This document shows, in pieces, positions 3,063-59,257 of a DNA stretch of 64,000 nucleotides (the stretch's first letter is position 1; every line of letters starts with the position of its first letter). The stretch lies in NCBI GenBank assembly GCA_049700215.1, contig JBNAVT010000006.1:1-64000 (forward strand), written 5' to 3'. A program made the translations under genes and the position numbers. Source of the DNA: Thermoproteota archaeon (GTDB lineage: Archaea > Thermoproteota > EX4484-205 > JAAOZP01). The notes beneath the pieces were generated by a model. It saw only the letters and a list, made by a program, of their open reading frames with translations. It had not been told where the DNA came from and searched no databases.

Positions 3063-3380
3063 ACGCGCTCGCTAAACTCCGCCAGGTTAAACCTTCCGGA
3101 GGATGTACGCCTCTAGGAAAGAGGATGGACCAGTAGCTTGTCCTCGCTCCATCCGTGAAGCCATTCTCCTCTAGTTCCGCATTCCCACGTCCACATCCGC
3201 ATGAAGTTATGGTTGTGCCTCCTCATGAAGTCAAGGTAGGCTTTATAGTTGAAAGGCGAGCCGTCTTCAAACTCCTGCAGGCTGCTCCAAGTATGGGAAC
3301 CGGTTAGATAAACTGCTCTACCAGTTGAGTCGCAGAAATATCGTGGGTTAGCCGGATGGGTCTTTAAAGGGGCCAGGCAA
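3063..3380 (-). pseudogene. N-terminal remnant of a DUF6298-like (GH5-like TIM barrel) protein
   Basis: Manual translation HPANPRYFCDSTGRAVYLTGSHTWSSLQE...FNYKAYLDFMRRHNHNFMRMWTWE with frameshifts and a stop; ends at a degenerate GC palindrome. Confidence 0.65.
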
Positions 3381-3514
3381 GCTGGGTGAAACCATTCTCT
3401 CAGTAGGAGCCCCGTTAGTATTTAAAATTTAAGATGGTGTCGACTGGCAATGGAGGCCGGGTTTAAACCCGTATCTGTAAATAATGTTCTCCTTCGCGTC
3501 GGCTTACGCAGCGA

Positions 3515-3772
3515 TCAGTATGAAACAGTTATGGCTTTCAGTGGACAAGCTTTAACGCATTTGCCGCAGCGGGTGCAGAGCGAGAGCCATACTGGCGTTA
3601 TCTGCCAGTACTGCGGGTCGTAGGGATCATCCTCCTCCACGTTGAAAGCCATGTGTCGCACGAAGACCGCTGGGTCGCAGACCAGCAGGCACTTGCTGCA
3701 CTGCCTGGGGTCTATTCCCCCCGTCGCGTTCCCGCATTTAGAGTAGTCGATTACTATCTTCGTCTTCCCCAC
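3515..3772 (-). CDS. 4Fe-4S ferredoxin
   Basis: CSKCLLVCDP and CTRCGKCVKACP. Confidence 0.85.
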   Translation of the reverse strand: MGKTKIVIDYSKCGNATGGIDPRQCSKCLLVCDPAVFVRHMAFNVEEDDPYDPQYWQITPVWLSLCTRCGKCVKACPLKAITVSY

Positions 3773-3788
3773 CCGTGTTCACCCTGGG

Positions 3789-4658
3789 CTAATACTTTCC
3801 ACGTAGGAGAGGGTTCTCATCCCTCGGCACCAGCCTTATCGCGTCGTGTGGACACCTGTCCCTGCAGAGCCCGCATCCGAAGCACTTAGTCGGGTCTATC
3901 AGTACTCTTTTAAGAGTTGGGCTGAACCTTATCGCGCCGAACTGGCAGCTTGCAACACACGTCTTGCAGCCCTGGCAAAGATCCGGGTTTACTTCCGCGT
4001 AGTACTCAGCCTTGTAAACAGTGTGGAGGCCGAAGTCCATTCTTAAACGCAGGCCGCCGCACTGCGGTGTTTCACACGAGCATATTGCGCATATGTAGGG
4101 CACTGGCTGGAACCAGACTGTGGCCACCCGCCCCTTCCTGTTCTGCTCCTCCAGAGCCGCCGCCGCCTCATCCCGGCCTAAACGCACCTTCGTGTTCTCA
4201 GGGATGAACCTTGGCAGTTTCTCTATTACTGTCGAGAGGACTCCGAAGTTGATGCAGCACATGTCTTTAATGCCTTTCTGCATCATGCGGCACATGCAGT
4301 AGTTCTGAATAATGGGTTCGGCGGCGAGGTTGAGCATTATCAGCTTCGCCTCCTCAATAGGTATTACTTGGCCGAAGTGCCCGTCTGCCCTAACAGGGTT
4401 CCTGTTCCTGCTTTCAGAGTGAATCATCCCCTCGACTGTCCGCCGGATCACCCTGCCTATGATTGGCATTCTAAGCTTGTAGCCCAAGCCTATTGATGAC
4501 ATACCCATTATCTTCCTTATGTAGACCTGCTCGAAGTTTCTCCACTGCTCCTCCAAGTATGCTTGAAGATTCATGGCTTCAGCCAGCTCGTAAGAATAGT
4601 TCCTAGCGTTCAAATACCATTTTCCACCAGCGCCATGCTTCATGCACCAGTCGCACAT
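3789..4658 (-). CDS. Cys-rich protein with C-terminal 2x[4Fe-4S] domain
   Basis: CQGCKTCVASCQF and CFGCGLCRDRCP, plus extra CDWC, CMC, CC and CAICSC clusters. Confidence 0.85.
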   Translation of the reverse strand: MCDWCMKHGAGGKWYLNARNYSYELAEAMNLQAYLEEQWRNFEQVYIRKIMGMSSIGLGYKLRMPIIGRVIRRTVEGMIHSESRNRNPVRADGHFGQVIPIEEAKLIMLNLAAEPIIQNYCMCRMMQKGIKDMCCINFGVLSTVIEKLPRFIPENTKVRLGRDEAAAALEEQNRKGRVATVWFQPVPYICAICSCETPQCGGLRLRMDFGLHTVYKAEYYAEVNPDLCQGCKTCVASCQFGAIRFSPTLKRVLIDPTKCFGCGLCRDRCPHDAIRLVPRDENPLLRGKY

Positions 4659-4731
4659 GGTTAAACCCTTTTAAAACCATGCTTGTCAATATTTAAGTCT
4701 TCTCAGCCCACGCTGTTAATATTTAAATCGT

Positions 4732-10529: not shown

Positions 10530-10627
10530 GGGGGATGGTTGTAACTAGGCTAATAAGTTTTTAACGCAAGACATATAGAACCGTCTTGCTTTCCAAAACC
10601 CAGCTGCCTAAGGGAGGGGGACGGGGC

Positions 10628-10978
10628 TTGAAAATAGTGGGCCGCGGCCTGATCACGATAAAGACGAGGGCTGAGGGGGAGCTGCGCTACGTTAGAAACG
10701 TGAGGGACGTGCTGGCCCTATTGAAAGAGGGGGCTGCGGGCAAGATAGTTATGGTTGACGACGCTGGAGTGACTTTGCTCGGGCCAGTGCTTTCGAAGCT
10801 GGCTGGAGTAGTATGCTTATCCGGAAGCCTTGGTTCTCACCTTGCTATTGTTAGCCGCGAATTCTCCATCCCGGCGCTGATGGATACGAGACTGGAGACA
10901 GCTGAGCCGATCCATGGGCGGAGAGTGATAATCCAGCCGCAGGACGGGAGCAACGGACTCCTGCTGCTTGAAGAGTAG
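10628..10978 (+). CDS. Stand-alone PEP-utilizing mobile (phospho-His swivel) domain protein
   Basis: GSLGSHLAIVSREFSIPALM; TTG start at 10628 preferred over 10586. Confidence 0.82.
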   Translation: MKIVGRGLITIKTRAEGELRYVRNVRDVLALLKEGAAGKIVMVDDAGVTLLGPVLSKLAGVVCLSGSLGSHLAIVSREFSIPALMDTRLETAEPIHGRRVIIQPQDGSNGLLLLEE

Positions 10979-11011
10979 CTGGAACAGGCCCAAGGCTTAA
11001 AGCGCGCGCTA

Positions 11012-12578: not shown

Positions 12579-13463
12579 ATGCTTAAAATAGGCATAGTCG
12601 GCGGCGCCAAGCATTGGCACACCAGGAGCTTCTCCGAGATGTTGAACGGTTATGACGAGGACTTGGCGAGGAGCAACGGTTTCCCGCTTTACAGGACTAG
12701 GCTTGACGGAGCAAGGGTGACGCACATCTGGGATCCTGAGAGGGAGCAGGCGGAGCTGGTTGCGAAAACATGCCGCATAGATAATGTTCTTCAAAACATG
12801 GAGGAAATGATCGGCAGTGTGGACGGGGTTATAGTTGCGGATGACACTACGATGCAGCATCAGAAAAGAGCCTTCCCTTTTCTTAATGCTGGCATGCCGA
12901 CCTTCGTCGACAAGCCTCTCTCACCCTCGATCGAGGAGGCTCAGCTGATTGTGGAGACTGCGAGGAAGCATAATGCTCCCTTCATGTCTTGCTCCGCCCT
13001 CCGCTACGCCAGGGAGGTTGAGGAGTTTCTCGCTGAAAAAGAGAGTCTTGGAGAAATACTCGCCGGCAGCAGTGTCTGCAGCGGGGACCTTGTTTTCTAT
13101 GGTGTCCACGCCCTGGAGCAGCTTTACGTCTGCGTGGGGGGAGGCGTGGAAAGCGTGCGGAACGTTGGCGAAGAAGGAAGGGACATCGTGGTCGTAACTA
13201 TGAGAGACGGGAGGAGGTTCGTGTTAACAGTCTACAGGGATATTCACTACCTTTTCCACATGAGCCTCTACGGGACAAGGGGGTGGAGGGAGGTTAGGGT
13301 TGAGGACAGCGACTACTTCTACTCCAACATGCTCCGCGCATTCCTGAGAATGGTTGAAACCAAGCAGCCACCGTTCCCGCCTGAGGAGACGCTGGAGATA
13401 ATCAGGACGCTTATTCTAGCAAGACGCTCCGCGCAGAATGGAGGAGTCATTCTCCATCCCTAA
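12579..13463 (+). CDS. Gfo/Idh/MocA family oxidoreductase
   Basis: MLKIGIVGG, FVDKPLS, SCSALRY, FYGVHALE; ATG at 12579 after GAGGAGG. Confidence 0.88.
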   Translation: MLKIGIVGGAKHWHTRSFSEMLNGYDEDLARSNGFPLYRTRLDGARVTHIWDPEREQAELVAKTCRIDNVLQNMEEMIGSVDGVIVADDTTMQHQKRAFPFLNAGMPTFVDKPLSPSIEEAQLIVETARKHNAPFMSCSALRYAREVEEFLAEKESLGEILAGSSVCSGDLVFYGVHALEQLYVCVGGGVESVRNVGEEGRDIVVVTMRDGRRFVLTVYRDIHYLFHMSLYGTRGWREVRVEDSDYFYSNMLRAFLRMVETKQPPFPPEETLEIIRTLILARRSAQNGGVILHP

Positions 13464-13876
13464 TTTAATGGGCTTGCGGAATTTAGATCGTTAAAATTGC
13501 ATTCCCGGGAGTAGATTCACATTCCTTGTAAAGTTGAAGATGAGTTTTTTAACCCAAGTATTCATGAAATTCTAGAAAACCATTATACGAGGAAGCCTTC
13601 GCGTGCAGAGGGAAAAATACTTCTATGCACCATTTCCTTCGTGATGAGTCCCTAAATGCTGAAGAAAATGTTGTTCAGACCTTAACCAAGCTACTATTTT
13701 TAGCATAGCGTGGCTTAAGGGTTATGCTTTAAAGGGTTTGGCTACATTTTTATGTGGCGAACCCTCAGCTTAAGAAGCGGCTCGTAGGTTCCTTATAATA
13801 CTCGAGCGCAGCTTTTCATCCCCATGTTTTTGTTGCGTCACATTCCTTTCCAACAAGCGCATACTCAGAGGATTTT

Positions 13877-14950
13877 TCAGACTGTTTGAACTGATGATGC
13901 TTTAAATGCCAAGTAGACTTTCAAGCCTATATTGAGTTGCATTTCATTGAATGATCGTTTAGTTATTTGAACTATGAAGTTTTTGTTTTCTGCAACCTTT
14001 ACCTTTAGCTTTACCACATGCCCTATTTCGGATATTTGAACTATTTTGCCTTCGAAGGTGTTTCTCGCGCTTGAGATGAGTGGGTGAGTTGATAAGATGA
14101 TGTCTTCAGGAGGCACATGCAACGTTACATCCCCAGCTTTCTTAAACGCAGCTTCCACCCGTAAGCCGCTTCCGATGTCCACAATAGATGTGCCTTCCGC
14201 TGTGATTTTTGAAACACCGTGGAAAACGTTCTCCAGCTCGGCGAAGCTTTTAATGGATCTCGACGATTTTTCGAAAAGCTCTTGAAAGGTGCCTGTCAGC
14301 TCTATTTTCCCCTCATTAAGAAAAGCCAGTCTATGTGCTAGATTTTCTGCTTGAAACATGTTATGGGTCGTCATAATTATTGTGGTTTTCCTTTCCCTAT
14401 TAACGTAGGAGAGAGCTCCCTCAACTATGGAGACATTTCTCGGATCGAGGTTTGCGGTGGGTTCGTCAAGAAGTAGCAGTTCAGGCCCTGTCACTAACGC
14501 TTGGGCTATGGCTACTCGCTGGGCTTCCCCGCCAGACAAAGCCAAAGCATTTTTGCGTTCAAACCCGTTCAGCTGAACTAATTCAAGCGTCTCTTTCACC
14601 TTTTGCTTAATATCGCGTTCGTTTTCACCCTTAACTTTCAATGGATAAGCCACGTTATCAAAGACGCTCATGTTGAAGAGAACTGTCTGCTGGAAAACCA
14701 TCCCTATTTTTCTGCGCAAAGCAACCCTGTCCTTCTTTGAAGAATAATCTACGATTTGCCCGTCGAACAATACTCTGCCACTTGTGGGTTCCTCAAGCAG
14801 ATCAATAATCCGTAAGAGCGTGGTTTTTCCAGCTCCATTGGGGCCTACAAGAACAAAAAGCTCTCCATTTTTAACGCTAAGGTTCACGCCCTTTAAAACT
14901 TGTCTCCCGGAGTATTCCTTACAGAGGTTTTGCACTTCTAAGGTGGGCAA
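13877..14950 (-). CDS. tupC: Tungstate ABC transporter ATP-binding protein with TOBE domain
   Basis: GPNGAGKTT, LSGGEAQR, LLLDEPT; C-terminal TOBE; operon context. Confidence 0.85.
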   Translation of the reverse strand: MPTLEVQNLCKEYSGRQVLKGVNLSVKNGELFVLVGPNGAGKTTLLRIIDLLEEPTSGRVLFDGQIVDYSSKKDRVALRRKIGMVFQQTVLFNMSVFDNVAYPLKVKGENERDIKQKVKETLELVQLNGFERKNALALSGGEAQRVAIAQALVTGPELLLLDEPTANLDPRNVSIVEGALSYVNRERKTTIIMTTHNMFQAENLAHRLAFLNEGKIELTGTFQELFEKSSRSIKSFAELENVFHGVSKITAEGTSIVDIGSGLRVEAAFKKAGDVTLHVPPEDIILSTHPLISSARNTFEGKIVQISEIGHVVKLKVKVAENKNFIVQITKRSFNEMQLNIGLKVYLAFKASSVQTV

Positions 14951-15637
14951 TTATCTCCTCGCCCCCTTAAATTGAACAATAGTTAACGCCAGATTTATCG
15001 CAAAAGCTATGAAAAGTAAAATGGCACCGAGAGTAAGCGCCATGGTAAAGTTGCCTAACTCTGTTTCAACAACTATGGCTGTTGTCAATGTCCGCGTCCA
15101 CCATCTAATGTTGCCCCCAGTAATCATTATGCCACCGACCTCAGATATCGCAGCGCCGAAGGCCACAATGATCGAGGTTAAAACGCCCATGCGGGCTTCC
15201 CTCAACACTAGCCATGCTGCTTGGGTTTCAGTCGCGCCAAGCGACAGTGCTCTTTCCCGGATTGATTCTTCAACGCTTCCCACAGCAGACATAGTCACGC
15301 CGATGATTATGGGAACAACCATTATCAGCTGCGTTATTATCATGGCTGTAGGCGTATACAATAGTGCTAACCAGCCGAGAGGACCAGACGCGGTCAACAG
15401 CAGGTAAACTACGAGACCCACAACGACGGGTGGCAAACCCATAAAAGTGTTTATTACGCTTTTCAGCATGACATCCATAAAGCGTATAAGCGTTCTCTTC
15501 CCTCTGAACCGCCTAAAACCCAGAAACGTTCCAACAGGTATGCCTATCGAAGCGCCAATTAAGACAGCTGTCCCTGAAACTCTCAGAGAGAGTAACGTTA
15601 TGCCCAAGACCTCCTCCCAAAAACTGTTTTCAATCAC
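14951..15637 (-). CDS. tupB: Tungstate ABC transporter permease
   Basis: TFMGLPPVVVGL, FGAAISEVG, GGNIRWWTRTLTTAI. Confidence 0.92.
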   Translation of the reverse strand: MIENSFWEEVLGITLLSLRVSGTAVLIGASIGIPVGTFLGFRRFRGKRTLIRFMDVMLKSVINTFMGLPPVVVGLVVYLLLTASGPLGWLALLYTPTAMIITQLIMVVPIIIGVTMSAVGSVEESIRERALSLGATETQAAWLVLREARMGVLTSIIVAFGAAISEVGGIMITGGNIRWWTRTLTTAIVVETELGNFTMALTLGAILLFIAFAINLALTIVQFKGARR

Positions 15638-15683
15638 CTGTTCTCACCCGCCGTAACCGTCAAGCTTCAAAAAGACCGTGTTT

Positions 15684-19953: not shown

Positions 19954-20139
19954 AGCGCGCGCTAATACTTAGGATATGGAATATACGTTGGAAGGAAATG
20001 ATTGGCCAGTATCTTAATATTTAAGGTTGGGAAAATATTTCAAGGGTTCCTGGAAAATGCTTTAAGAGGGGCGATAAAGCACCTAAAAGGAGAAAATAGC
20101 AAAGATGATCCGAATTCCTCTTTCCCTAGGAATACGGAG

Positions 20140-20717: not shown

Positions 20718-20749
20718 TCTTCGGAAACCCATAATAGGCCCGGGGCAGC

Positions 20750-24545: not shown

Positions 24546-24662
24546 ACATATTTAGAAATCTAGTGGCAGGAACGCGTATGCTATATTTATCAAGAAACTT
24601 GTTACTCAATAGAACCAGATAAAGCGCGCGCTAAAGAGGTAGCCGAGATACGTGGAAATAGA

Positions 24663-26500
24663 GTGGTGAACAATGTAGATAAAGTTGCATTCATAAGCGC
24701 GCGCGCTGCTGAGAATGGGCTTATGCTTTTCGAAACCTACCTTGACGCTAGGAAAGATTATGGTAAGGAGATTGCTGACACCTTTTTAAACAGCGTCGCT
24801 AAGCATCCTGAGCTGTTAAGCCTCTGGAGCGGAGCCGTGGAGGGCGGGGTCGCAATATTCATCGGAGCATCCCATGAACCGGATAGGATATCTTTACCCG
24901 AGGGTATTCGCGAGAGTGTTTACCGCGTCATCATACAGGATTCCGAGGGCGAGAACATCCTGATAGACGGCTTCAGGAGGATCGGCAGCGGGCAGGAGAC
25001 AATCCGCTTCTCCTCTGAGGACACTGCCGGCAGGATAAGGGGAGGCGAGAAATACCTGGTTATTCTTAAGGCTGCAACCCCGGGTGACTTTCTCGAGAAA
25101 TACCCGTCGAGGTTCGTTGAGGCAGCTGGTGGAAACGCCTATCTGGTGGATACTGAGAAAAGCAGGGTCGTCGAGGGATTGGTTGGGGAGCTGGATGAGT
25201 ACGGGGGCTTCGCTTTCATCAGGTTCATGGTTACGGATGCTGACGGAAAACAGGTTGAGCTCAGGCTGACCCAGAGAGGGAGGCTGATGCTGATCTCCGG
25301 CGAAGGGAGAACCATGATAGGCGGGGTGGAGCTGAAAACCGTGTGGGACGATTCTGGAGGCGAGGTGGCTAGGCTCCTGTTCCTGCAGGAGGAGGGCTTA
25401 GACAGGTACGGTGGGATAATTGTTCTAAGCAGGAGGATTCCCTCGAGACCCGTGCTGCTCCTGAGCAACGAGGAGCACGTTATAGAGATAGAGCCAGACC
25501 AGAAATACCTTGATGTAAGCGGGATGCTTAAGAGAATCATTGGTGGCGAAGAATATTTGAGGCTCAGCAGGGAAATGGGCAGCGGGGACGCGGTCCTGGG
25601 GGTTGCTTACCTTAAGCAGGATGGTGAAATAGATTCCGCGTGGACCCAGAGCGCTGACGCGGAGTTCAAGATTAAGGAGGCTGAGGACGTGCTCAGCCTA
25701 ATTATCGTAAGGAAGAACGGGCTTAGCGCGGTGAGCCCAGACGGGGGTGTTAGAGCAGAGCTTTCCGGAGAGTACTTAAAGTTTTACGGCGTCAAGGGGA
25801 TGGGCGAGGGAGCCGCGTTCAGGGTGAGCGAAGCGGGTACGGCCGATTCTCGAGATGACTCTGCCGAGCGGCGAGGCAATCCTGTTCCGAGTTGACGTAG
25901 CCGGAGACGGTAAAACAGTATCCTCGAAGCTGGCCTTAGCAGTAGAAAGGTATGCGCCTGATATAAACCTGGTTGAATACTACGGCGAGCTAAAGATTAT
26001 GCTGAGCGAGCGGTCAAGCGTTCGAGTATACTCTGAGAGACTTGATGGTCGTCGAGTATGAGGACAGCAGGGGAGTCCATAGAACTGCGGTTGGCTTAAG
26101 CGAACCCCTCCCGGATAAAGTGTTGAAGGAACCTCAACACGTCGCCACTAAGCTGTTCACGAAAAGCCTCTTAGAAAAACTGGGATATAGGATTCTGGAG
26201 GAGGAAAAACACTTTGAATGGCAAGGTGAGGATGTATTCTTTGATTTTCATGCAGAAAAACCGGATGAAAAAGTGGCAGTAGTCGAATGTAAGCATGGTG
26301 ATGAAACCGTCAGTAAAATAGATCAAGCCGACAAATATTTTAGAATTGCTAGAGAGAACGGTTGGAGGCTGCTTTATAGTTTTCTGAATGCTCCTCAAAC
26401 CTCTGAAGCTAAAGAGTTACTTAACCACTTAATTGAGCTTATGAGGCAGTATCCAGACACAGTGGAGGTTTTTATAAGTGGAGAGAAATATGGGAGGTAG
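24663..26500 (+). pseudogene. Frameshifted large protein ending in a PD-(D/E)xK nuclease domain (polymorphic-toxin-like)
   Basis: Three overlapping ORFs (24663-25895, 25855-26061, 26042-26500); C-terminal E...FDFHAEK...VVECKHG motif. Confidence 0.6.
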
Positions 26501-28688: not shown

Positions 28689-28858
28689 AGTAAAAAATTG
28701 GTATTAGTAGCATATAAATTTTTCTAGTAGCGCGCTAAAATGCTTTTTCAATTCTCTTTACCAAGACTTTATAGAACAGAGCTTTACGCTCAGCCTGTCT
28801 TCCACAAACCTTCTGAAAGACGACTCCATTATCCGCGCGAAGTTTCGCAGAGCTGGCT

Positions 28859-29770: not shown

Positions 29771-30024
29771 TTCTTGTAAAAGGCAGCTTTTATAATAGGG
29801 TTATATTAAGCTTTCCCACGAACAGTTAGGCGCTACTGGTTATTTTTTCTCCGGTTATTGAATATTGTGCTAATAAACCAATTGACGGTTTTAGCGCGCG
29901 AAGATTCTAGCATCAATTCTGTTTAAGATGCTTATTATCCTCTAACGATTCTTAGCAAATCCCACTTTACATCAAACTTTTGCGGTAAGTCCTGTCCATG
30001 TTTTTGATGCAGCCAGCGCGCGCG

Positions 30025-30648
30025 CTATTTTTGAGAACTGATTTCCCTTAAGATCTTATCCTTAATCTTTCTGACTTCCCTGAGGTTTTTTATGCCGAGA
30101 TACTCGAACTCGATCCTAGCAGACCTTATGATCTCCAACAGCCTTCTTTCATACTCCTCAACTCTAAACTTTCTAACCAACTGTTTATAATGTTTCCAAC
30201 TCACCTTACCGCTTTTAGCTAGGCAGATTATGTCCACTCTGTCTTTCTGCCCCTTTACGCTGTTCCTTCTTTGCAGCTCAGCCTGCTGCTTCAATATTAG
30301 CAGTATCTCAGGCTTGGGAATCCTAAAATTTTCGATTCTAACCGTGTTTTGGAGGATCTCCTCTGGTGGAATAGTGAATTCCGAATAATATGGAACATAA
30401 ATGTCTATAGATACTCCCTCCACTTCAGCCTGGTATTTTTTCAGAGACTCGTTCTTTTGAATTCCGATGCTTGTTTTAAGCCTGGTTAAATCCTTGAAAT
30501 CAACTATGATGTCTACATCCTTGGATTTTATGGCTTTCGTCAAAAAGTAGACGGCCCATCCGCCTATCAAAACGAAATCGATTTCCCTCCTTAGCTCCTG
30601 CAGTATTTTGAAGCTTCTGTCTATTGCTATCTCATTCCAGAACTCCAT
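30025..30648 (-). CDS. Nucleotidyltransferase, AbiEii/MenT-like (type IV TA toxin candidate)
   Basis: LIGGWAV...SKDVDI and a C-terminal KGQKDRVD motif. Confidence 0.7.
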   Translation of the reverse strand: MEFWNEIAIDRSFKILQELRREIDFVLIGGWAVYFLTKAIKSKDVDIIVDFKDLTRLKTSIGIQKNESLKKYQAEVEGVSIDIYVPYYSEFTIPPEEILQNTVRIENFRIPKPEILLILKQQAELQRRNSVKGQKDRVDIICLAKSGKVSWKHYKQLVRKFRVEEYERRLLEIIRSARIEFEYLGIKNLREVRKIKDKILREISSQK

Positions 30649-31219: not shown

Positions 31220-31709
31220 ATTTCTGTTCTAAATGTATTTTCTTTATAAAGCTTTCGACAAAATTCGAAAATACTATGGAAACATTATTTTAAACGACAA
31301 GGAGCGCGCGCTAGAGTTATTTTAGTTACGTATGCTTCTGAAGCTGCTGACGAACCGGTTCTCAGGAAGGCAGTGGGAAAATTCGGATTATCGCCTAGCC
31401 TACTTAAAAGACTCGTTTCTACGACTTTTTTACGATGTTATTTTCACTCAGAAGACTGCTAGGCAGAAGATCTTCCTGCCTCTCAAACACATCGCGGCGA
31501 AAACTGTTTATCGACTTGAATAAACTGCTTGTAAAACATTCCTCCTATGAACCCCCGCGCGCTGAAGGAAGCTCTTGGTACGGTTGAGGGCGAACCCACG
31601 GTAATCCTTTAAGTTTCGTCGATCCCGGGGAAAAGACCCGAGATGCAGGGTGGACAAATACATGATTTTCATAACCTTAAAAAGGCAGCGCGCACGGCAC
31701 TAATTAAAA

Positions 31710-33827: not shown

Positions 33828-34685
33828 TCACGCAACTGTCTTCTGCGCGCACTCATGCTCCGTGTTAATAGTTTTCGCAACTAGGTTCAACTCTGTCCAG
33901 GGACTGAACTGTTGTCTCGTAGCCAGGTTCCCATATGTTGCGACGGTTTCCCAACCTGCTTCCCTCAGCATTGATGCGAGCTCGCTTACGCTATAGACGT
34001 ATATGTCGAACACGATTCTGTCGATAAACCTCAGGTCGTCACCATTCTTCACATAGAAAGACCACGTGGTTCTAAGCCTAGAGGTGAGCGCATCCCATCT
34101 CGCTTCCTCAACTAGAACAATATCCTCATGAAGCGTGAATGATGAAGGGCAGAATCTCAGGTTTAGGGAATCCCTATGGACTGTCTCAGCTATGAACAGT
34201 ACCCCCCCTTCTCTTGTTAACCGTCTCGCCTGCTTGAAAACCGCGAGGTCTTCACTCTTATCGTAATAGCCTATTGATGTCCAGACGCTGGTTACTACGT
34301 CGAAACACGCATCCCTAGGCACAAGGCTGAGGAGTCTCCGCGCATCACCGCATATGAAGCTGGCCCTCTTGGAGACACCTAGCTCCCTCGCCCTCTCTCT
34401 AGCGTCTTCAATAAAAACGGGAGAAAAGTCTATGCCTACGGCTCTGAAACCTTTTTTAGCGAAGGATATTGCAACCCTCCCGTTTCCGCAGCAAAGATCC
34501 AGGATCCTCCCGCTTTCGATGTTGAAATCCTTAAGCAGCCTTATCATTCCGTCGACGAGAGCCTCTGTTTTAAGCCATCTCTCGTTCATAATTTTAAGAA
34601 AAAGATCGGCTCGCTCTATGAAAATTCTCCTAGTCCAGTCTTCCATGATTACTGGGGGAAAAACGCCTTCTGATTTAAAAAACAT
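33828..34685 (-). CDS. Class I SAM-dependent methyltransferase
   Basis: ILDLCCGNGR, GDAR, WTSIGYY. Confidence 0.9.
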   Translation of the reverse strand: MFFKSEGVFPPVIMEDWTRRIFIERADLFLKIMNERWLKTEALVDGMIRLLKDFNIESGRILDLCCGNGRVAISFAKKGFRAVGIDFSPVFIEDARERARELGVSKRASFICGDARRLLSLVPRDACFDVVTSVWTSIGYYDKSEDLAVFKQARRLTREGGVLFIAETVHRDSLNLRFCPSSFTLHEDIVLVEEARWDALTSRLRTTWSFYVKNGDDLRFIDRIVFDIYVYSVSELASMLREAGWETVATYGNLATRQQFSPWTELNLVAKTINTEHECAQKTVA

Positions 34686-40061: not shown

Positions 40062-40073
40062 TAGCGCGCGCTA
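40062..40073. repeat. Perfect palindrome TAGCGCGCGCTA, representative of a dispersed repeat family
   Basis: AGCGCGCGCT at 11001, 19954, 24623, 31303, 40063 and 52843; (GC)5 forms at 24696 and 30015; variants at 3063, 19450, 28728, 29892, 31556, 31687, 33495, 49515, 56913 and 59245. Confidence 0.85.
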
Positions 40074-52792: not shown

Positions 52793-52880
52793 CCTTACGT
52801 CATATAATATGAAAATATCATACTATATTAACTTTACGCAGAAGCGCGCGCTACGCTTGGTGAAGCGGGGGGACCTCTAA

Positions 52881-54593
52881 TTATTCCTCACCCATTCTCT
52901 TGGCCCAGTCTTCCAGCTTCATGCCCTCGCTAATGTGTGTAACACCCGCCCTACGGGCTATCTTGAGAAACCTGCGTAGCAACTCTAATCGTTCCTTGTC
53001 TTTAACCCGGTTCGTCGCCAGCTTGACGTACCAGACTGGTAGGCGGGCTACCTGCACGCGGAAACGGGTCTCCTCGCTGTCAGCCAGCCGCTCCGCCTCG
53101 TCAAAAAGTTTTTCAGCCTCCTCCAGAAACTCGTCGTCCAGGAACGGGGATGTCGGCGGGTCGTAAATGTGAACGTGAACGCCCTTCTCCCTAGCCTTCC
53201 TGTGCAACAGCTTTATGTAGGCTCTGACAGCATTCGCCGCTCCACCGTAATAGCCTTCTAGAAAATCGTCAACATGCTTCTGCAGGTCAGTGTCAGGGTT
53301 CCAGAGTAGCTTCGCCAGCAGGTATGCTCTCAGCGGCGCCATCTCCCCGTTTCCACCGGGAGAATAGTTGCCCTGTTCAAACAAGCCTTTGACACCGTGT
53401 TTGACGAAAAACCTTACGTTCGCCTGAAGGACTTCGATGTTTGGGAAGGGCTGAACGTAATGGGCGAAGTTAGTCGTATAATCCCAGACGTAAAGCACTG
53501 GGGAAACCAGCTGCCAGGCTTCAATGTCTCTGCGGAAACTCTTGTTCTCCTCCGACGGGCAGCTTTCCAACGGGTGGGAGAAGCAGCACTCAATGGAGCA
53601 GAGCCTGATTATAACGTTTCCCCGGGGGCGAAGGGTTTTCGGAGGCTTACGGCTATACTGGTAGGCGAGTGTCTCCACGCGAACGTTCGGGTAATCGTGT
53701 TCAACGGATTCAGCGATCTTGTTTACGAACATGATGAGCGACGCGGCTGGGCTCTCCTCCGCCTCGTCGAATGCTTTGCATTCTGGGCACTGACACCAGT
53801 TGCCAGTGTCGTTCTGCGAAACATCGATGATGGTCGCGTCAGGGTGTTCTTCCAACCATTTCCGCACACGTTCAACCGCGATTTCAACAAGCTCAGGGTT
53901 GGATAAGCATCTTTGAACATACCCGCTGACACGTTTGCCATCTACCATAGGCCAGAACTCCGGGTGTTGCTCGCAGATTTCACGGGGTATTAACTGGTCT
54001 AAACTGTGTACAAAAGGATGGAATACGGCCGCCCGTCCACCGTGTTTCTCAGTTAAACGGTAATGGTGCCCGTTCAACCTATGGCGGGCGGCGAAATCAG
54101 CGTCCCGCAGCATCTCCGTCCAGAAGACTTCGCGATACTCTAAAACCGGTTTCTGCATCTCGTCTAGGGAAGGGATTTCGATACGCGTCATATTGGGCAC
54201 ATGCTCCACTTCAGGAGTGAGCCAGCGGACGCCGAGCTTCTCCTCCAGCAGGGCGTAGACACCGTAAAGCGTTCCACGGGGCCTGCCGCCAACTATCACC
54301 AGATGATTGCTGAATGTTCTAAGCAGGAAGCCTTCTGAGCCAAGTTTAGACAGGTCAACACGCAATCCTAAGCTTTGCAGATGCTTGTTGTCGCCAAGCA
54401 TTATTTCATGGCTTACCATCGGCTGGTCGTCTGCAGTAATAGGGAGTTTCACGCCGCTGATGCGCTCAAAGTATTTCTGTAGCTCTTCAGCAGCATAGTG
54501 CTCCGACGGGATTGCGTCCACAGGTATGATGATGCGGTAGGGGCTTTCACCTTCATCCACCAACACGATCCGCTGTGGTATAGCATGCATCAT
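52881..54593 (-). CDS. DUF4838 domain protein (putative glycoside hydrolase, GH67/GH20-like N-domain)
   Basis: AAEELQKYF, RGTLYGVY...LGVRW, SQND...WCQCPEC, LAYQY, WDY, LLWNP. Confidence 0.85.
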   Translation of the reverse strand: MMHAIPQRIVLVDEGESPYRIIIPVDAIPSEHYAAEELQKYFERISGVKLPITADDQPMVSHEIMLGDNKHLQSLGLRVDLSKLGSEGFLLRTFSNHLVIVGGRPRGTLYGVYALLEEKLGVRWLTPEVEHVPNMTRIEIPSLDEMQKPVLEYREVFWTEMLRDADFAARHRLNGHHYRLTEKHGGRAAVFHPFVHSLDQLIPREICEQHPEFWPMVDGKRVSGYVQRCLSNPELVEIAVERVRKWLEEHPDATIIDVSQNDTGNWCQCPECKAFDEAEESPAASLIMFVNKIAESVEHDYPNVRVETLAYQYSRKPPKTLRPRGNVIIRLCSIECCFSHPLESCPSEENKSFRRDIEAWQLVSPVLYVWDYTTNFAHYVQPFPNIEVLQANVRFFVKHGVKGLFEQGNYSPGGNGEMAPLRAYLLAKLLWNPDTDLQKHVDDFLEGYYGGAANAVRAYIKLLHRKAREKGVHVHIYDPPTSPFLDDEFLEEAEKLFDEAERLADSEETRFRVQVARLPVWYVKLATNRVKDKERLELLRRFLKIARRAGVTHISEGMKLEDWAKRMGEE

Positions 54594-56014: not shown

Positions 56015-56920
56015 TTACATTATTTTTAGAATCTCCTTAATCCGGCATATGCAAGACTCCTCGGCTTTCCGCGCTTCACGAAGCGCTTCCGTCTTCGCAT
56101 CGTCGGCAAGCTCCTCGCCTCTAGCCTTGTCAAGCAGCCTAGCAATTTTTCCGTATTCACTACTCAGCTCTCTTGCTGTTTCTGAAACAGCGCCTTTCAT
56201 TTTTCAACGGGATCTCCATGAAGCAGCTGGACGCCATTTCCATGCACTCGGCTCATACTGTTCCGTTCCACCAGTCCCCGTGGCTCGACCCTAAACCCTA
56301 GTTCACGGCTTTCACCCACGTGTCATAAGCCAAGACCAACATAATAGTGCTTGAACATCCATTTTCCAGGATTCTCAACCATGTCAAGCGCGCATGACGG
56401 TTCTTTCATCAGCCTTCTCCGTCTTACTGAAGCTGAAGAAGGTCACATGAGTTTCATCCCCAGTTCCTTCCACATTTCAAACGTGAGAGTCTTGCATGTA
56501 ATAGTTAGGTCGACGGAGGGCCACGGCTGCTTCAATAAGAAACGCTTGTCATCATACCCTGTGATCAACTGGCTCTCCATGTTTAGCATGGAGCAGGGCA
56601 TGCATGCGTCAATGCTCCTCCTCAGAACGCTCTCGACCCTCCTACGCTCCTCTAGAGTACTCTTGGCATGGAAGAACCCGAGGTCCGTCATACCTATACC
56701 AAGGTTCTCCACCAGCCTGTAGAAGGTTTCATAGTTCCAAGCATATGGACCGCTTGGACAGATCTGGAGAGGGGAGAGAGGTTCTCCCTTGAAGTTCCAA
56801 AACACTCTTTTTATCATCCAGCTTTTAAGATCGTAGCTTGCGTGAAAGCTGACAACGGGCTTACTTTCGTCAAACGCCTTATACGATGTCCACTTGTAGC
56901 CTGCGATGAGGAAGCGCGCG
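56015..56920 (-). pseudogene. Fragmented, possibly chimeric hypothetical gene(s)
   Basis: Short ORFs 56443-56817 and 56015-56200; the reading frame begins at the GC palindrome (56913-56921) with no start codon. Confidence 0.45.
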
Positions 56921-56953
56921 CCAGCTACGACGGCTAATGCAGCACGTATCCCG

Positions 56954-57724
56954 TCAAAGTATTATGCAGAAGGGACCCAGTATTGAAGCTAAAACGTTCT
57001 CCTCGGGAAACGGGTGGCCCCTGTGCTGGCGGAAAGCTTCCGCATACTTCCTTCCGACCTCCGAGCCTCTCTCCATGGCCCACCGTCTCATCTGAAGTAT
57101 GTATTCATCTATGCCGTGCTGCGCGCGCAACCATTCTCTCTGGCTTCTGTGTTGAGCAAGCATTCTCTCTTTAACTCTGATCGTCGAGCCTATATCCACG
57201 TAGAAACCCGCGTGAACCTTCTCGCCAAACCTGTTCCTGCCTCCAATGGCGTCCGCGTAGAACAGGAATGGTATTCTACTAGTCGGCTTCGCAGGGTTAG
57301 CATGGTTCGTCACGTAGTTGGGTATCGACGCGTTGAAGCAAGCGTCCCACATGAGGTCTGCAGTCAACTGGTGGTCTATCATGTAGTCCTCCGGCGAGTG
57401 AGTTATGACGATGTCCGGGTTAACTCTTCTCATAAGCTCCACTGCTTTGAAACGAGTCCTGTTTTCAAAAACCAGATGCAGGTCTGATTCTCCGAGACAC
57501 GCGTAGGGTGCGTCGAGAATTCTCGCGGCTTTCTCGGCCTCTCTGAACCTGATGCTGGCGATCTCCTGGCTCCTAAGCTTTATTGACCCCATGTCTCCTG
57601 TGCAAACCGTCGCGATGAAAATCCTCCATCCTTTTCTACGGAGGAGAGCAAGAGTGCCCGCCATTAAAAACTCAACATCATCAGGGTGCGCGCCCACTGC
57701 TAGCACAATCCTGTTTCTCTCCAA
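56954..57724 (-). CDS. PIG-L/LmbE family deacetylase
   Basis: GAHPDDVE, DYMIDH, HRSQ, AEAF. Confidence 0.92.
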   Translation of the reverse strand: MERNRIVLAVGAHPDDVEFLMAGTLALLRRKGWRIFIATVCTGDMGSIKLRSQEIASIRFREAEKAARILDAPYACLGESDLHLVFENRTRFKAVELMRRVNPDIVITHSPEDYMIDHQLTADLMWDACFNASIPNYVTNHANPAKPTSRIPFLFYADAIGGRNRFGEKVHAGFYVDIGSTIRVKERMLAQHRSQREWLRAQHGIDEYILQMRRWAMERGSEVGRKYAEAFRQHRGHPFPEENVLASILGPFCIIL

Positions 57725-57852
57725 CCTTGGCTGCTACAACTCAATAGAAACTTATAAGGTTGCCTGCATGAACCACAGTATGGCTCCGCTTGGAGGAGAA
57801 CACATATAAGCTTAAGCAGGTTAATCATGTGCAAGCCGGATGGTGAACAAGT

Positions 57853-59223
57853 TTGGCTAGCAGGCTGAGCCAAAGGGAAATAAGCTTTATCGCCGCCGAG
57901 ATAATCGAGGAAACCAGGCCCAAGATAAACCTTGGCCTCAGAATAACCAGGGAGGAGTATGAGAAAAGATGGAGTATTCTTCAAAACAGGATGAGCTTGA
58001 AAGGCTACGGCCTCGCGTACGCGTGCGGCAGCGAGCTCGACAGGTCTGACATCGCTTGGCTCGCTGGTGTCTTCGACCCAATAATAGAGCGCTATGGTAT
58101 TCTTATTCCCTCTGAAGGCAGGCCGGTTGTACTTGCTGGCCCAGAGGGTGGTCATGTCATAGAGGAGGCAGTCGAGGAGTCGGGTGCAGACATCGTTTTC
58201 CTGAGAGAGTTCCAGATTTCTGACGAGGACTATAGGCACGCCCGCTTCACTTCTCTCCGAGAGGTTTTGAAACGCATAGGGGTTTCAGAGGACAGTCGCG
58301 TAGCAATTCTGTCAAGCCCGCAAGCCGTACCATACGGGCAGGTTATGCTGCTCCACAGGGTTTTCGGCGTAAACAAGGTTTTTTTCGACGAGGAGCTTCT
58401 GCAGCGCATAAAATACGAGAAGTCCGACAGGGAGCTAGCAATATGCGAGATGGCTAACGTCATTGCTGACGCTGCCTTCAGGGCTATGCTGGCTGTTTCA
58501 ACACCAGGGATGAGGGAGCTTGAGGTCGCCGGCGTCGGGGAATACGTTATGAGGGAGCTGGGTGCACGCAGAACCGGCTTCCCAACCATAGTGACATCCG
58601 GCGAAAGAAACTATACTGTAATAGGCCCGGCGACGAACAGGGTTATCCAGAGGGGTGACATGGTCTCCATGGGTGTCAGCCCGACTTTCAACGGTTACCA
58701 TGGAGTAATAAGGAGGACCTTCAGGGTTGGCGAGCCGATGACCAAGGGCCAGAGAGATTTCCACAATGCTGTGGAGGGGCTTTACATCGTCGTGATGGAG
58801 GCGGTTAAGACGGCAGCCAGGGAGGGCTTGCCCTCGAACTATATTGACCGGCAGGGGAAGCAGTATCTTGAAAGACTGAGGCTCACGGGTTTTAACGGGG
58901 TTTCAACACCGGTTGAGCCGTACACGTTTATCCATAACACTGGCTGCTCAGAGTGTCAAGAGGGGTATGGGGCTGTAACGCCTTATACTACACAGCCACT
59001 GGGCAGTCAGGCTGCTCTCATGATCGACGTTGCCCTGCTTGGCTTCAGGCAGAGGGGGAAACCACTCTTCGAAACCATTTACGACGTTATTGAGGACGCG
59101 TTCTGGAAGAAGGGCGGGGAAGTCGGGGTTTACAATAGGCTGCCGTTGAACGTGGAGCATCTTGTTGGGAACACGGAGCCTCTGGGCTCCAACCTGAACC
59201 CTTACCACAAGAGTTTCGCCTAG
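57853..59223 (+). CDS. M24 (Xaa-Pro peptidase/creatinase fold) protein
   Basis: KSDRELA, GMRELEVA, GYHGVIRRT, FIHNTG, IED. Confidence 0.85.
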   Translation: MASRLSQREISFIAAEIIEETRPKINLGLRITREEYEKRWSILQNRMSLKGYGLAYACGSELDRSDIAWLAGVFDPIIERYGILIPSEGRPVVLAGPEGGHVIEEAVEESGADIVFLREFQISDEDYRHARFTSLREVLKRIGVSEDSRVAILSSPQAVPYGQVMLLHRVFGVNKVFFDEELLQRIKYEKSDRELAICEMANVIADAAFRAMLAVSTPGMRELEVAGVGEYVMRELGARRTGFPTIVTSGERNYTVIGPATNRVIQRGDMVSMGVSPTFNGYHGVIRRTFRVGEPMTKGQRDFHNAVEGLYIVVMEAVKTAAREGLPSNYIDRQGKQYLERLRLTGFNGVSTPVEPYTFIHNTGCSECQEGYGAVTPYTTQPLGSQAALMIDVALLGFRQRGKPLFETIYDVIEDAFWKKGGEVGVYNRLPLNVEHLVGNTEPLGSNLNPYHKSFA

Positions 59224-59257
59224 CAACCGTATCTTAATGGTTTGAGCGCGCGCGGTC

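Follow-up and report, generated by a model that had tools for sequence, protein, structure and literature searches.

Fillers at repaired DNA breaks are known from several systems, the closest to our case being the primase-polymerase (AEP) domains of LigD type (PolDom) in bacteria and archaea, the pAgo-associated PrimPol AgaPP, IEE of E. coli and polymerase theta of animals. To our knowledge, the fillers that end joining leaves are either random or copied from nearby DNA. The alternating G/C tracts described here, found in a 64,000-nt stretch (hereafter, the window) of the chromosome of a hot-spring archaeon, resemble such fillers in that deletions of variable length are joined via a few added nucleotides, with a probable 1-2 nt overlap of the ends, and in that the enzyme put forward as a candidate shows an AEP fold and matches PolDom in size. 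Unlike those fillers, the tracts show the same defined sequence in hundreds of events, namely a self-complementary (GC)3-5 between A and T. They also depart from canonical end-joining systems, as no Ku was found and the partner gene of the AEP encodes a paralogue of RadA, not a ligase or Ku.

Further parallels exist. The N and P nucleotides of V(D)J recombination (TdT) are enzyme-added, G/C-biased and random in sequence, and occur at programmed breaks in vertebrate immune loci; the tracts share with them the presence of G/C nucleotides at break junctions, but their sequence is defined and palindromic. Excision of Tc1/mariner and hAT elements leaves short palindromic, TA-flanked footprints where DNA has left. 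The tracts are likewise short TA-flanked palindromes at sites of DNA loss, but no parent element was found for them, the missing DNA is unrelated host sequence of up to 2 kb, and their length varies in steps of 2. The mobile GC clusters of yeast mitochondria, structured elements of 30-40 bp in AT-rich organelle DNA, are also GC-rich palindromic spacer insertions at deletion or recombination breakpoints, whereas the unit here is 8-12 bp long, alternating, and carried by a chromosome of 49% GC. Finally, HIP1 (GCGATCGC) and the alternate HIPs are, like the tracts, GC-rich palindromic octamers, lineage-specific and in tens-fold genome-wide excess. Cyanobacterial HIPs are described as tied to cognate methyltransferases (PMC4390886). 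For the tracts, unlike HIPs, no C5 methylase was found; they are intergenic insertions at indel junctions and are not conserved at orthologous positions, so that the likeness to HIP1 proposed in an earlier reading of the window (the sequence-only reading) stands for the statistics, and not for a cognate cytosine methylase or orthologous-site conservation. No published description of such GC-repeat scars was found in the literature.

In the window, AGCGCGCGCT occurs 6 times where 0.05 copies are expected, and 0 of 100 dinucleotide shuffles reached this number. The six exact coordinates listed by the sequence-only reading are right (11001, 19954, 24623, 31303, 40063 and 52843), as are its two (GC)5 forms (24697-24706 and 30016-30025), for which it gave the position of the preceding A. 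In all, 26 alternating G/C runs of at least 6 bases were counted in the window, about 14 of which form the tract family; the others are ordinary, mostly coding sequence that the relatives keep (7227, 24160, 31688, 57121, 57688). The over-representation extends to the whole source genome (G000, 2.09 Mb) when measured against an order-3 Markov background: GCGCGCGC, with 339 copies against 11.2 expected, is the most over-represented 8-mer, and AGCGCGCGCT, with 118 against 1.1, ranks among the top 10-mers. The unit measures 10-12 bp, [T]A(GC)3-5T[A]; the flanks beyond are random, and no instance-specific palindromy was found around the tracts of G000. Genome-wide, A is found at -1 in 92% of the tracts and T at +1 in 84%, and 35 copies are perfect palindromes with TA on both sides. 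Within the window, as the sequence-only reading remarked, the right-hand TA is better kept than the left; over the whole genome this asymmetry vanishes, 57% of the tracts having T at -2 and 56% having A at +2. CpG-transition variants of the tract are 8-16 times over expectation, while most other variants at inner positions (3-5) are found at 0.5-1.3 times expectation, and one at 3.7 times. Tracts decay via CpG transitions.

We compared G000 with 1.34 Mb of its relative G002 (~61% of the G002 genome). Flanks could be located in G002 for 95 of the 243 G000 tract sites, and 7 of these 95 were undisturbed and collinear, versus 381 of 584 control spacers (Fisher p=3.6e-28), which upholds the claim that the palindrome stands where modules meet. 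Length differences of at least 200 bp were present at 13 of 35 collinear tract sites, versus 7 of 441 controls, and the tract-bearing genome was the shorter one in 13 cases out of 13. At 20 of the 24 well-anchored G000 sites, the tract replaces from 1-2 up to 2123 nt kept by G002; the other 4 have no A..T flanks and are coding substitutions. Reciprocally, tract sites of G002 correspond to deletions of 1751, 204, 51 and 30 nt relative to G000. In clean collinear cases, DNA (1 to ~2100 bp) has invariably been lost from the tract-bearing genome: the ends of the lost, dispensable stretch or of the small replaced patch are joined by 8-10 bp of alternating G/C, usually bounded by A and T, and this tract is new DNA, absent from the orthologous site of the relative. 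Near-pure insertions with 0-3 nt lost also occur, and in G002 a pure insertion lies between duplicated 6-bp sequences, as might equally result from a staggered cut or from a step resembling transposition. Outgroups gave the polarity of the window events only: a tract-free state is common to several relatives at 11001, 24697, 30016, 40062, 56914 and 59246. In roughly half of the events the flanking A or TA appears to be ancestral, and in the rest it would be new. Junctions without (GC)n filler were also seen (3054-3067 in the window, and ~13549-13556 of contig C29 of G000), and one block is inverted in G008.

Within the window, homology with the relatives halts at the tracts 11001, 24697, 31303, 31556, 33845, 40062 and 56914, none of which is spanned by an alignment, and genes truncated by a tract are found in G000 (24697, 40062) as well as in G008. 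The A(GC)4T at 11001..11010 lies directly past the stop of the gene at 10586-10978, with a 5′-truncated gene fragment on its right. Homology with G002, G009 and G007 ends there; beyond the equivalent point, G002, G009, G013 and G007 share another downstream sequence, mutually conserved, and the right flank of the tract matches the interior of a gene in G003. The exact A(GC)4T copy at 19954..19963 is located in a G000-specific spacer, ~185 nt from a tRNA-Ser (20139-20223); homology of no relative reaches it, and the region 13448-20137 has no match among the five relatives searched. Past the ribosomal protein L2 gene (23814-24545), the A(GC)4T at 24623..24632 sits in a variable spacer where the homology of 16 out of 16 genus relatives stops at ~24545-24557, and G002 carries a (GC)4 of its own that adjoins the L2 stop and precedes 4.7 kb of different DNA. 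This tract and the A(GC)5T at 24696..24707 enclose a 65-bp remnant. The latter is the 5′ truncation point of the gene at 24663-25895, as homology with G002, G008 and G007 begins at 24709 and their reading frame extends further upstream.

The TA(GC)3TA at 28728..28737 is one border of a single-gene segment, containing a PALP enzyme gene (Pfam assignment, 28859-29770) whose homologues lie at other loci in the relatives, with borders devoid of tracts. Between this segment and a two-gene segment (30025-31219) lies the variant TA(GC)3G (29892..29901), the site of a break in a Logan contig from the source run; ~20 nt further right, the contiguous G007 homologue of 29922-31303 starts. At the stop codon of the gene at 30025-30648, the A(GC)5T of 30015..30026 is a small in-place replacement: the (GC)5 (10 nt) of G000 at 30016 faces GTCCT (5 nt) in G006, both flanks being alignable, and a contig of an independent sample (X2) spans the tract unchanged. 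The two-gene segment ends with the A(GC)4T at 31303..31312, and the G007 homology ends exactly at 31303. The C(GC)3 variant at 31556..31562 forms the left end of a block common to G002 and G008, which both have (GC)3 at the same block end, next to a different left neighbour; it is an older scar common to the three species. The (GC)3 at 33845..33850, adjoining the 3′ end of the gene at 33828-34685, is a breakpoint next to which homology of the relatives begins (33853), and G011 has its own (GC)4 in the same spacer, ~30 nt off. As for TAGCGCGCGCTA at 40062..40073, it replaces ~493 bp kept by G002 and truncates the gene at 39746-40060; its flanks are collinear in G002 (contig C57), with blocks ending at 40060 and resuming at 40074. 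The A(GC)4T at 52843..52852 lies in a non-homologous spacer, ~30 nt past the stop of the gene at 52881-54593, and on its right the homology of the relatives starts at 52877-52881. The (GC)4 at 56914..56921 replaces ~610 bp of G009 and ~566 bp of G002; compared to G009, the left block runs to 56913 and the right one starts from 56923, with flanks collinear on one contig. Between convergent genes, the (GC)4G at 59246..59254 is another small in-place replacement, with GCGCGCGC facing GGCG (4 nt) in G002 and a similar sequence in G008, and flanks 94-95% identical. Lastly, the 14-nt junction ACGTGTAACACGCG (3054..3067) replaces 941 bp of G002, where homology on contig C43 stops at 71985 and resumes at 72927; it contains no clean (GC)n, and its membership in the family is uncertain.

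As the palindrome sits where DNA was lost or replaced, it has the look of a scar of unusual break repair, not of a signal or mobile element, and we consider it reasonably probable that the tracts are filler junction scars of error-prone DNA-break repair. Among the origins put forward by the sequence-only reading, filler DNA added during end joining is the one that fits, given that the tract is absent at the orthologous site of relatives, replaces 1 to ~2100 bp and truncates genes. Each broken 3′ end would gain a short tail, (T)A-GCGC..., and because (GC)n is self-complementary, the two tails could anneal to each other before fill-in and ligation. Such a GC-rich "synthetic microhomology" would be stable at hot-spring temperature, annealing out of register would produce n=3 or 5 around the mode n=4, and ends already finishing in A or TA would provide 1-2 nt of overlap. 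We infer this tailing-and-annealing step from the junction sequences. Canonical NHEJ is not involved, since no Ku was found in 17 genus genomes. It was also proposed that the palindrome may drive the shuffling of accessory genes; the tract marks deletions and rearrangement junctions as a product of these events, and nothing shows that it is their cause.

Which enzyme might make the tail? Known end-joining polymerases include AEP enzymes of a size similar to that of an uncharacterised PriS-like primase-polymerase of ~270 aa, which is our tentative candidate. Its gene lies outside the window, directly after that of a second, full-length RadA (end of contig C59 and C17:241-1062 of G000). The AF2 model has the AEP fold (pLDDT 82.7), with PriS as top structural match; the matches also include the NHEJ polymerase of Methanocella and the PolDom of LigD. 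For AEP primase-polymerases, terminal-transferase and microhomology end-joining activities are described in PMC11724360 and PMC9943667. Only six of the genus genomes yielded the RadA2+AEP pair, namely G000, G002, G008, G007, G006 and G013, which have 118, 70, 88, 32, 18 and 6 copies of AGCGCGCGCT, respectively. It was not found in G011 (3 copies) or in 8 tract-poor genomes (0-3 copies). Counter-evidence comes from G009 (33 copies), where the pair exists only as fragments with stops, and from G010 (16 copies), where it was not found. Likewise, no intact member of the AEP family was found in the tract-rich phylum genomes G142, G389, G105 and G395, G142 having only a stop-containing fragment. Distant homologues (37-48% identical) are carried by 46 dereplicated contigs from other metagenomes, which contain 99 GCGCGCGC in 221 kb, versus a median of 2 for G/C-only 8-mers; the phylum background is mostly 0-20 per genome. 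At least one tract is present in 26 of these 46 contigs (51 tracts of n=4, 20 of n=5 and 2 of n=7), whereas the other 20, as a point against the link, have none; tract flanks in this contig set differ, some being AT(GC)nAT. The link between AEP and tracts is a correlation; inside the genus, one or two evolutionary events underlie it.

Other origins were weighed against filler scars. Alternating GC is a classic Z-DNA former, and (GC)n tracts already in place might be fragile non-B sites (Z-DNA or cruciform) that provoke deletions, the tract being then cause and not product. This we regard as unlikely. The tracts are clustered (15 neighbouring pairs less than 100 bp apart, versus 2.6 expected), several independent events affect the same spacers, and 2 of 21 collinear A..T-flanked sites have the same length in G000 and G002, a low sharing that suggests fast turnover. 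However, this leaves the origin of the tract unexplained, and near-pure insertions exist, as do polarised cases in which several relatives have neither tract nor deletion. Fragility may well add to turnover once a tract is formed. A cut-and-paste element of Tc1/IS630 type, transposon or MITE, that duplicates a TA target and ends in GCGC... would leave excision footprints that account for the 35 perfect copies, as TA, two end remnants and TA yield TAGCGCGCGCTA, and for the 6-bp duplication; G000 also contains 5 matches to TnpB-type fragments, mostly truncated. Still, 3 of these 5 have no adjoining tract, G000 has no IS-type multi-copy gene family, the 145 inter-tract segments contain no common repeat family, and no parent element was found, an absence that is not proof as MAGs can lose multi-copy elements. 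Moreover, the outer T/A is present in only ~57%, nothing is conserved past 12 bp, and the "empty" site of relatives is rarely a single TA, with up to 2 kb missing. The excision scar of the sequence-only reading is thus unsupported, and we hold such a footprint to be quite improbable.

The recombination site that it also envisaged, i.e. the core crossover site of an integron-like system moving gene cassettes, would explain the tract-bounded one- and two-gene segments (28728-29901 and 30015-31312), the end tract that the block from 31556 has in three species next to different neighbours, and the inversion in G008. Yet binding arms are lacking, conservation stops at 12 bp, the same genes lie at other loci in relatives without tracts, and most events are simple collinear deletions, with tracts of variable length. 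Nor did a search for recombinases of the tyrosine family (PF00589) give any match in G000, the genome richest in tracts and 94.6% complete. It is very unlikely that the tracts are such sites. We give just as little credit to a HIP1-like palindrome, maintained by methylation-linked mismatch repair or by a selected function (terminator, protein-binding or uptake site). The genome-wide excess of at least 30-fold and the methyltransferase link of the cyanobacterial HIPs speak for it, and methylated cytosines would fit decay by CpG transitions; but no C5 methylase (PF00145) was found in any tract-rich genome, N4/N6 methylases are alike in genomes with and without tracts, and tracts arise via insertion/deletion, not substitution. 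Nor are they retained at orthologous positions or placed in a constant manner relative to genes. An assembly, library or binning artefact is close to negligible. All genomes are MAGs, and contig ends are enriched in tracts (18 within 200 bp, versus 4.3 expected), but tracts are crossed without change by contigs of a second sample, scars recur between species in shared and decayed form, the tract is far shorter than k=55, the other subclade of the genus has 0-3 copies per genome, and 18 AGCGCGCGCT, versus 0 for the reversed control, were counted in 8 close loci of 6 metagenome records that bear different names. The footprint, integron-like, HIP1-like and artefact explanations all fit worse than a filler scar.

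By our own, crude gene calls, 85.5% of G000 is coding, and 176 of its 264 runs of (GC)≥4 lie between genes, 13 cross the edge of an ORF and 75 are inside ORFs, 47 of the latter being at most 40 nt from the 3′ end or at most 60 nt from a possibly over-extended 5′ end. The initial remark that copies are intergenic or at gene ends is therefore correct. Spacers with tracts are divergent (40), convergent (38) or tandem (72), and tracts in G000 spacers keep neither a constant distance from genes nor a constant orientation to them. Arrays of collinear remnants lie between tracts in G000, and tracts coincide with forks of the k=55 assembly graph. Like the clustering of tracts and their enrichment at contig ends, these features are in keeping with filler scars. 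The scars accumulate in spacers, pseudogenes and accessory regions, and arrays of short gene remnants are left behind. Because they pile up in such regions, leave remnant arrays and decay, they coincide with synteny breakpoints and with forks of the assembly graph.

All six exact copies of the 10-mer A(GC)4T (AGCGCGCGCT) that the sequence-only reading had listed for the window were recovered at their positions, where 0.05 would be expected, and none of 100 dinucleotide shuffles contained six or more. The strong excess held genome-wide. In the source assembly (G000; 2,089,643 bases, 85 contigs, 49% GC), whose contig C6 supplies the window as its first 64 kb, no 8-mer is more over-represented than (GC)4 (GCGCGCGC), with 339 copies where an order-3 Markov model predicts 11.2; AGCGCGCGCT occurs 118 times (1.1 expected), and the 12-mer TA(GC)4TA (TAGCGCGCGCTA) 35 times. 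Maximal runs of four units (166) are more frequent than those of three (156), and 51 runs have five. The run is preceded by A in 92% of cases and followed by T in 84%; the second pair is less strict, with an outward T on the left in 57% and an outward A on the right in 56%. Past this second pair the flanks are random sequence, and no private palindromy of individual copies was seen beyond the core. A longer element is therefore ruled out, and the unit is a palindrome of only 10-12 bp, [T]A(GC)nT[A], not the core of something larger. Single-base variants of the 10-mer are mostly CpG transitions, found at 8 to 16 fold expectation, while most other variants at the inner tract positions (3-5) occur at 0.5 to 1.3 fold, with one at 3.7 fold. 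This means that copies are born perfect and decay later.

An artefact of library or assembly is countered by three observations. Logan contigs, both from the source run and from a second sample, run through tracts without change; eight close loci, which come from six metagenome records with different names, contain 18 copies of AGCGCGCGCT and none of the reversed control; and tracts common to several species are present in decayed form. The sequencing runs in which the sequence was found are hot-spring metagenomes; runs X3 and X4 contain other species and no strains of the G000 species. Among close relatives, record titles read Candidatus Brockarchaeota or Thermoproteota archaeon.

To describe the distribution across the phylum, 401 genomes were scanned for AGCGCGCGCT, with the reversed word as a control. 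Counts of motif and control were 118/1 in G000, 88/2 in G008 and 70/1 in G002, its richest congeners, then 33/1 in G009, 32/1 in G007, 18/3 in G006, 16/0 in G010, 6/1 in G013 and 3/1 in G011. In a distant subclade of the genus (eight members, 71-75% identical in the shared block), only 0-3 copies were found. Four genomes of other families are also tract-rich (G142, 30/0; G389, 35/1; G105, 22/0; G395, 14/1), and the habit of an A before the run was seen again in the 16 loci inspected in them. When G395 was compared with 5 congeners, its tract lay within a G395-specific region, beyond a tRNA-like repeat of 80 nt, and the comparison revealed no junction. The background of GCGCGCGC is mostly 0-20 per phylum genome. 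Four further genomes (G057, G267, G285 and G351) have hundreds of copies, but in them the reversed word CGCGCGCG is present at a similar frequency (lower in G285); this looks like a composition effect, unlike the asymmetric excess of G000.

The window was compared with 16 genus relatives, five of them in detail. Alignments end exactly at the tracts at 11001, 24697, 31303, 31556, 33845, 40062 and 56914, sites that no alignment spans, whereas runs lacking the A and T flanks (7227, 24160, 31688, 57121 and 57688) are ordinary conserved sequence, mostly coding. At 40062-40073, a copy of TAGCGCGCGCTA truncates a gene, and G002 has about 493 bp instead, between collinear flanks. Two 669-aa paralogues (DUF6785 + DUF6784; 36275-38284 and 40529-42538) lie on either side of this site, with the truncated gene remnant between them. 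At 56914, G009 has about 610 bp in place of a (GC)4 run. At 11001, four relatives (G002, G009, G013 and G007) have one common downstream sequence, and what stands to the right of the tract in G000 is a gene fragment, internal to a gene in G003. At 24697, the (GC)5 tract marks where a gene is truncated at its 5′ end, the gene being longer in G002, G008 and G007. Smaller exchanges are found at 30016, where 10 nt of GC replace 5 nt of the relatives, and at 59246, where 8 nt replace 4. The relatives have private tracts at breakpoints of their own, directly after the L2 stop in G002 and truncating a GH20 gene in G008. The junction at 31556 is common to three species, hence some scars are old.

Two other regions of the window were characterised. 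The ribosomal-protein cluster at 20307-24545 (L3, L4, a small ORF and L2 by Pfam) is conserved in all 16 genus relatives, and in all 16 homology stops at the L2 stop; beyond it the DNA is variable and lineage-specific, containing PIN-domain genes and small modules of two genes, and the usual continuation of the operon past L2 must lie elsewhere. The segment 16971-19454 encodes a proton P-type ATPase of the plasma-membrane type (TIGR01647, 767 bits). The 6.7 kb around it (13448-20137) have a lower GC content (44-49%) and no match in the five relatives searched, and are therefore probably acquired DNA. The search for RNA families in the window returned one tRNA only.

We then extended the comparison to the whole genome, using 1.34 Mb of G002, the closest relative (94% identical in the shared block). 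In G000, 243 runs of at least four units were testable, 1033 spacer midpoints served as controls, and a flank match required at least 80% identity. Among tract sites, 148 had no flank match, 55 matched on one flank, 35 were collinear and 5 split; the corresponding numbers for the controls were 449, 128, 441 and 15. Counting only sites with any match, and taking a gap within 3 nt as undisturbed collinearity, 7 of 95 tract sites were undisturbed, versus 381 of 584 controls (Fisher p=3.6e-28), which bears out the placement of the palindrome at breakpoints. Length differences of at least 200 bp were found at 13 of the 35 collinear tract sites versus 7 of the 441 controls, and in all 13 cases the tract-bearing genome was the shorter one. 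Of the collinear sites with an A(GC)nT tract of at least four units, 19 show a length difference and 2 show none. Of 24 well-anchored G000 sites, 20 are replacements, the tract being absent from G002, which keeps 1-2, 2, 3, 4, 7, 9, 11, 16, 16, 18, 21, 48, 282, 320, 324, 493, 692, 784 or 2123 nt at such sites. The remaining 4 lack the A and T flanks and are coding substitutions.

The reciprocal test, with 83 G002 sites against the entire G000 (14 well anchored), gave deletions of 1751, 204, 51 and 30 nt on the G002 side, together with small replacements and a single pure insertion of 8 bp; a few sites were shared and differed by transitions or by four versus three units. By our reading of the alignments, the A or TA next to the tract pre-exists in the relative for about half of the events and is new in the rest, a pattern that looks like an overlap of 1-2 nt with a TAGCGCGCGCTA-like unit. 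The pure insertion of GCGCGCGC (G002 C16:104749, a stitched piece) has a 6-bp direct duplication, GTCAAA, on its flanks, single-copy in G000, a hint that at least some of the events involve a staggered cut. The tract is DNA added at the junction of a deletion or replacement. The pattern is real and lies far beyond chance; what was found is a lineage-specific, sequence-defined scar of deletions and rearrangements.

Relative to our own, crude gene calls (1967 ORFs, 85.5% of G000 bases), the 264 runs of at least four units fall between genes in 176 cases, across an ORF edge in 13 and within ORFs in 75, 47 of these last at most 40 nt from the 3′ end or at most 60 nt from the called start. Tracts occupy divergent (40), convergent (38) and tandem (72) spacers, and no fixed distance between tract and gene was found across them, which argues against a promoter or terminator role. 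They are clustered, with 15 neighbouring pairs less than 100 bp apart (2.6 expected). Some loci are arrays in which pieces of 25-400 bp are separated by tracts (C56:1002-1671, C54:96-667 and C19:27698-28896); those that could be compared with G002 are collinear remnants of a longer sequence. Nucleotide BLAST revealed no repeat family among 145 inter-tract segments. Tracts are also enriched within 200 bp of contig ends (18 versus 4.3 expected). Contigs of G000 overlap by 55 nt, the signature of an assembly graph, and at three forks the paths diverge exactly at a tract (C28/C10 and C67/C58) or by a transition inside it (C69/C41). This fork structure suggests that the population is polymorphic for tract events. 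For those who work with metagenome-assembled genomes (MAGs), the tracts account for one class of contig breaks in these organisms.

Several known systems resemble the tract in part. HIP-type palindromes arise and persist by substitution at orthologous positions. The tract is likewise a short GC-rich palindrome in strong genome-wide excess, but it is an insertion or replacement absent from G002 at 20 of the 24 well-anchored sites, only 4 being substitutions. PMC4390886 reports a cognate DNA methyltransferase where a HIP-type palindrome is frequent. Here a C5 methylase (PF00145) was found in none of the nine tract-bearing genus genomes, and in the genus only in G001 and G004; N4/N6 methylases (PF01555) are present in all five genomes tested, tract-bearing or not. 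A footprint of cut-and-paste transposition would fit the single case with a 6-bp duplication, but the relatives carry 1-2123 nt of unrelated sequence, not a single copy of the target duplication. No parent transposon with matching terminal inverted repeats and no IS-like multi-copy family was found by all-vs-all protein clustering, a search to be read with the incompleteness of MAGs in mind, and BLAST between tracts gave no IS or MITE repeat family either. Five TnpB-type zinc-ribbon matches exist in G000 (C46:10430-10630, C49:225-425, C11:57094-57288, C19:10071-10262 and C60:4003-4188), of which four occupy short open frames and three are close to a contig end; they are degraded IS200/IS605-type elements. 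TnpB was rejected as a source, no tract lying beside the fragments in 3 of the 5 cases. Integron attC sites are structured, imperfect inverted repeats tens of bp long that come with an integrase; the tract has no conservation past 12 bp, and no tyrosine recombinase (PF00589) was found in G000. REP/RAYT elements are imperfect palindromes of 20-40 nt with a conserved head and a Y1 transposase, whereas the unit here has 10-12 bp and random flanks; CRISPR arrays have repeats of at least 24 nt and uniform spacers, whereas the "repeats" here are of 8-12 bp and separate collinear gene remnants of 25-400 bp. Existing tracts may be fragile and add to turnover, but this does not explain their origin. 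The gene-family searches and the insertion-plus-deletion events speak against HIP-like, integron-like and footprint readings, and so against a recombination site or the excision scar of a mobile element, two of the origins that the sequence-only reading had offered. Its third, filler added during end joining, fits: the tract is absent at the relatives' sites and stands in place of DNA that they keep.

Among known end-joining systems, Ku/LigD NHEJ shares with these genomes an AEP-fold polymerase: a small, putative PriS-like primase-polymerase (hereafter AEP) is encoded in 6 of the 17 genus genomes. It differs in that Ku (PF02735) was found in none of the 17, while the same search detects it in B. 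subtilis, and in that no dedicated ligase is linked to AEP. Nearly every genus genome has two ATP-dependent ligases, irrespective of tract count, none of them adjoining AEP, and ligase number was rejected as a discriminator of tract-rich from tract-poor genomes. In AgaPP/IEE-like microhomology end joining, an AEP acts as a terminal transferase and joins 3′ overhangs, with an associated helicase domain or gene; here the neighbours are a second RadA (RadA2) and a zinc-ribbon protein, and AEP shows only a modelled fold and putative catalytic motifs (DxD, sGxGFHxH). In the tract-rich genus genomes, no match was found to reverse transcriptase, to the PolX palm (G000 has a sub-threshold match only) or to the Prim-Pol family PF09250 (G142 only).

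AEP, located outside the window, is a plausible but unproven candidate for the enzyme that makes the scar. When genomes were scanned for the primase small-subunit family, a small additional copy turned up in tract-rich ones alone. The G000 copy is a 273-aa ORF (C17:241-1062) directly after RadA2, itself full-length and running from the end of C59 into C17 (C59:5562-6308 and C17:3-257), and 50% identical to the housekeeping RadA (C1:936-1865), also full-length. Only six genus members (G000, G002, G008, G007, G006 and G013) encode both AEP and RadA2 at full length, AEP always following RadA2. In G009, AEP is represented by fragments containing stops, and G010 and G011 lack it. Additional AEP fragments exist in all of the six but G013, two of those in G000 being cut off at tracts. 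In G002, tyrosine integrase genes (C5:11677-12006 and C63:8115-8582) lie no more than a few kb from extra broken AEP copies, and part of the family may travel on integrated elements. AEP retains the catalytic motifs DxD and SGxRGFHxHV and a Cys/His cluster, and diverges fast: it is 57-81% identical between species whose RadA2 are 85-92% identical. The family numbers 42 proteins among 5.8 billion, all hypothetical where named, and searches of PADLOC and PHROGs returned nothing. The AlphaFold model (pLDDT 82.7) has archaeal PriS as its top Foldseek match, and LigD polymerase domains and the NHEJ polymerase of M. paludicola are also among the matches.

As an independent check, 72 metagenome contigs with AEP homologues of 37-48% identity were collected; 46 remained after crude dereplication (221 kb, 45% GC). 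They contain 99 copies of GCGCGCGC, the median for a G/C-only 8-mer being 2. At least one tract is present in 26 of the 46, with the same length spectrum (51 runs of four units, 20 of five and 2 of seven). Flanks vary by lineage in these distant contigs: at five loci (L288, L290, L291, L295 and L301) the tract stands between AT and AT, as in CAT(GC)7ATG, not TA and TA, and such flanks may be lineage- or enzyme-specific. Three facts count against the link with the enzyme: no intact family member was found in G142, G389, G105 or G395, 20 of the 46 distant contigs have no tract, and the correlation within the genus rests on very few evolutionary events. Clustering of neighbours at 77 AEP loci gave no conserved neighbour outside the close group.

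A mechanism can be outlined. The 3′ ends of a break would be extended by a tail of the form (T)A(GC)k; being self-complementary, a pair of these tails could anneal into a GC-only duplex stable at high temperature, and fill-in and ligation would yield A(GC)nT. A slipped register would produce three or five units, and ends finishing in A or TA would overlap the unit. More speculatively, four units might be the shortest tail stable at the growth temperature. It is possible, if rather doubtful, that some thermophilic archaea have an undescribed break-repair pathway of this kind, in which a stand-alone AEP, paired with RadA2 in this genus, writes a self-complementary (GC)n tail as a heat-stable synthetic microhomology joining any two ends, each repair leaving an 8-10 bp bar-code, a countable and datable record of deletion. 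We found no description of the tract in print: searches for the motif match only primers, oligonucleotides and unrelated uses, and the search took in the accessible parts of the HIP literature and of the Brockarchaeota paper PMC8065059.

If this reading is right, it would be, to our knowledge, the first case of end joining that leaves a sequence-defined scar. Deletion and rearrangement junctions would be legible from one genome, without comparison, and datable by the decay of CpG in the scar, so that gene loss in uncultured archaea would become measurable. The rare, unannotated AEP family and the second RadA would gain a function, and an enzyme able to add a defined, self-annealing tail to the ends of DNA could serve as a tool. 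The reading would also point to an answer, concrete and open to testing, to the question of how DNA ends are joined at high temperature in archaea that lack Ku, and in these lineages the pathway would be a major driver of the loss of genes and the turnover of islands.
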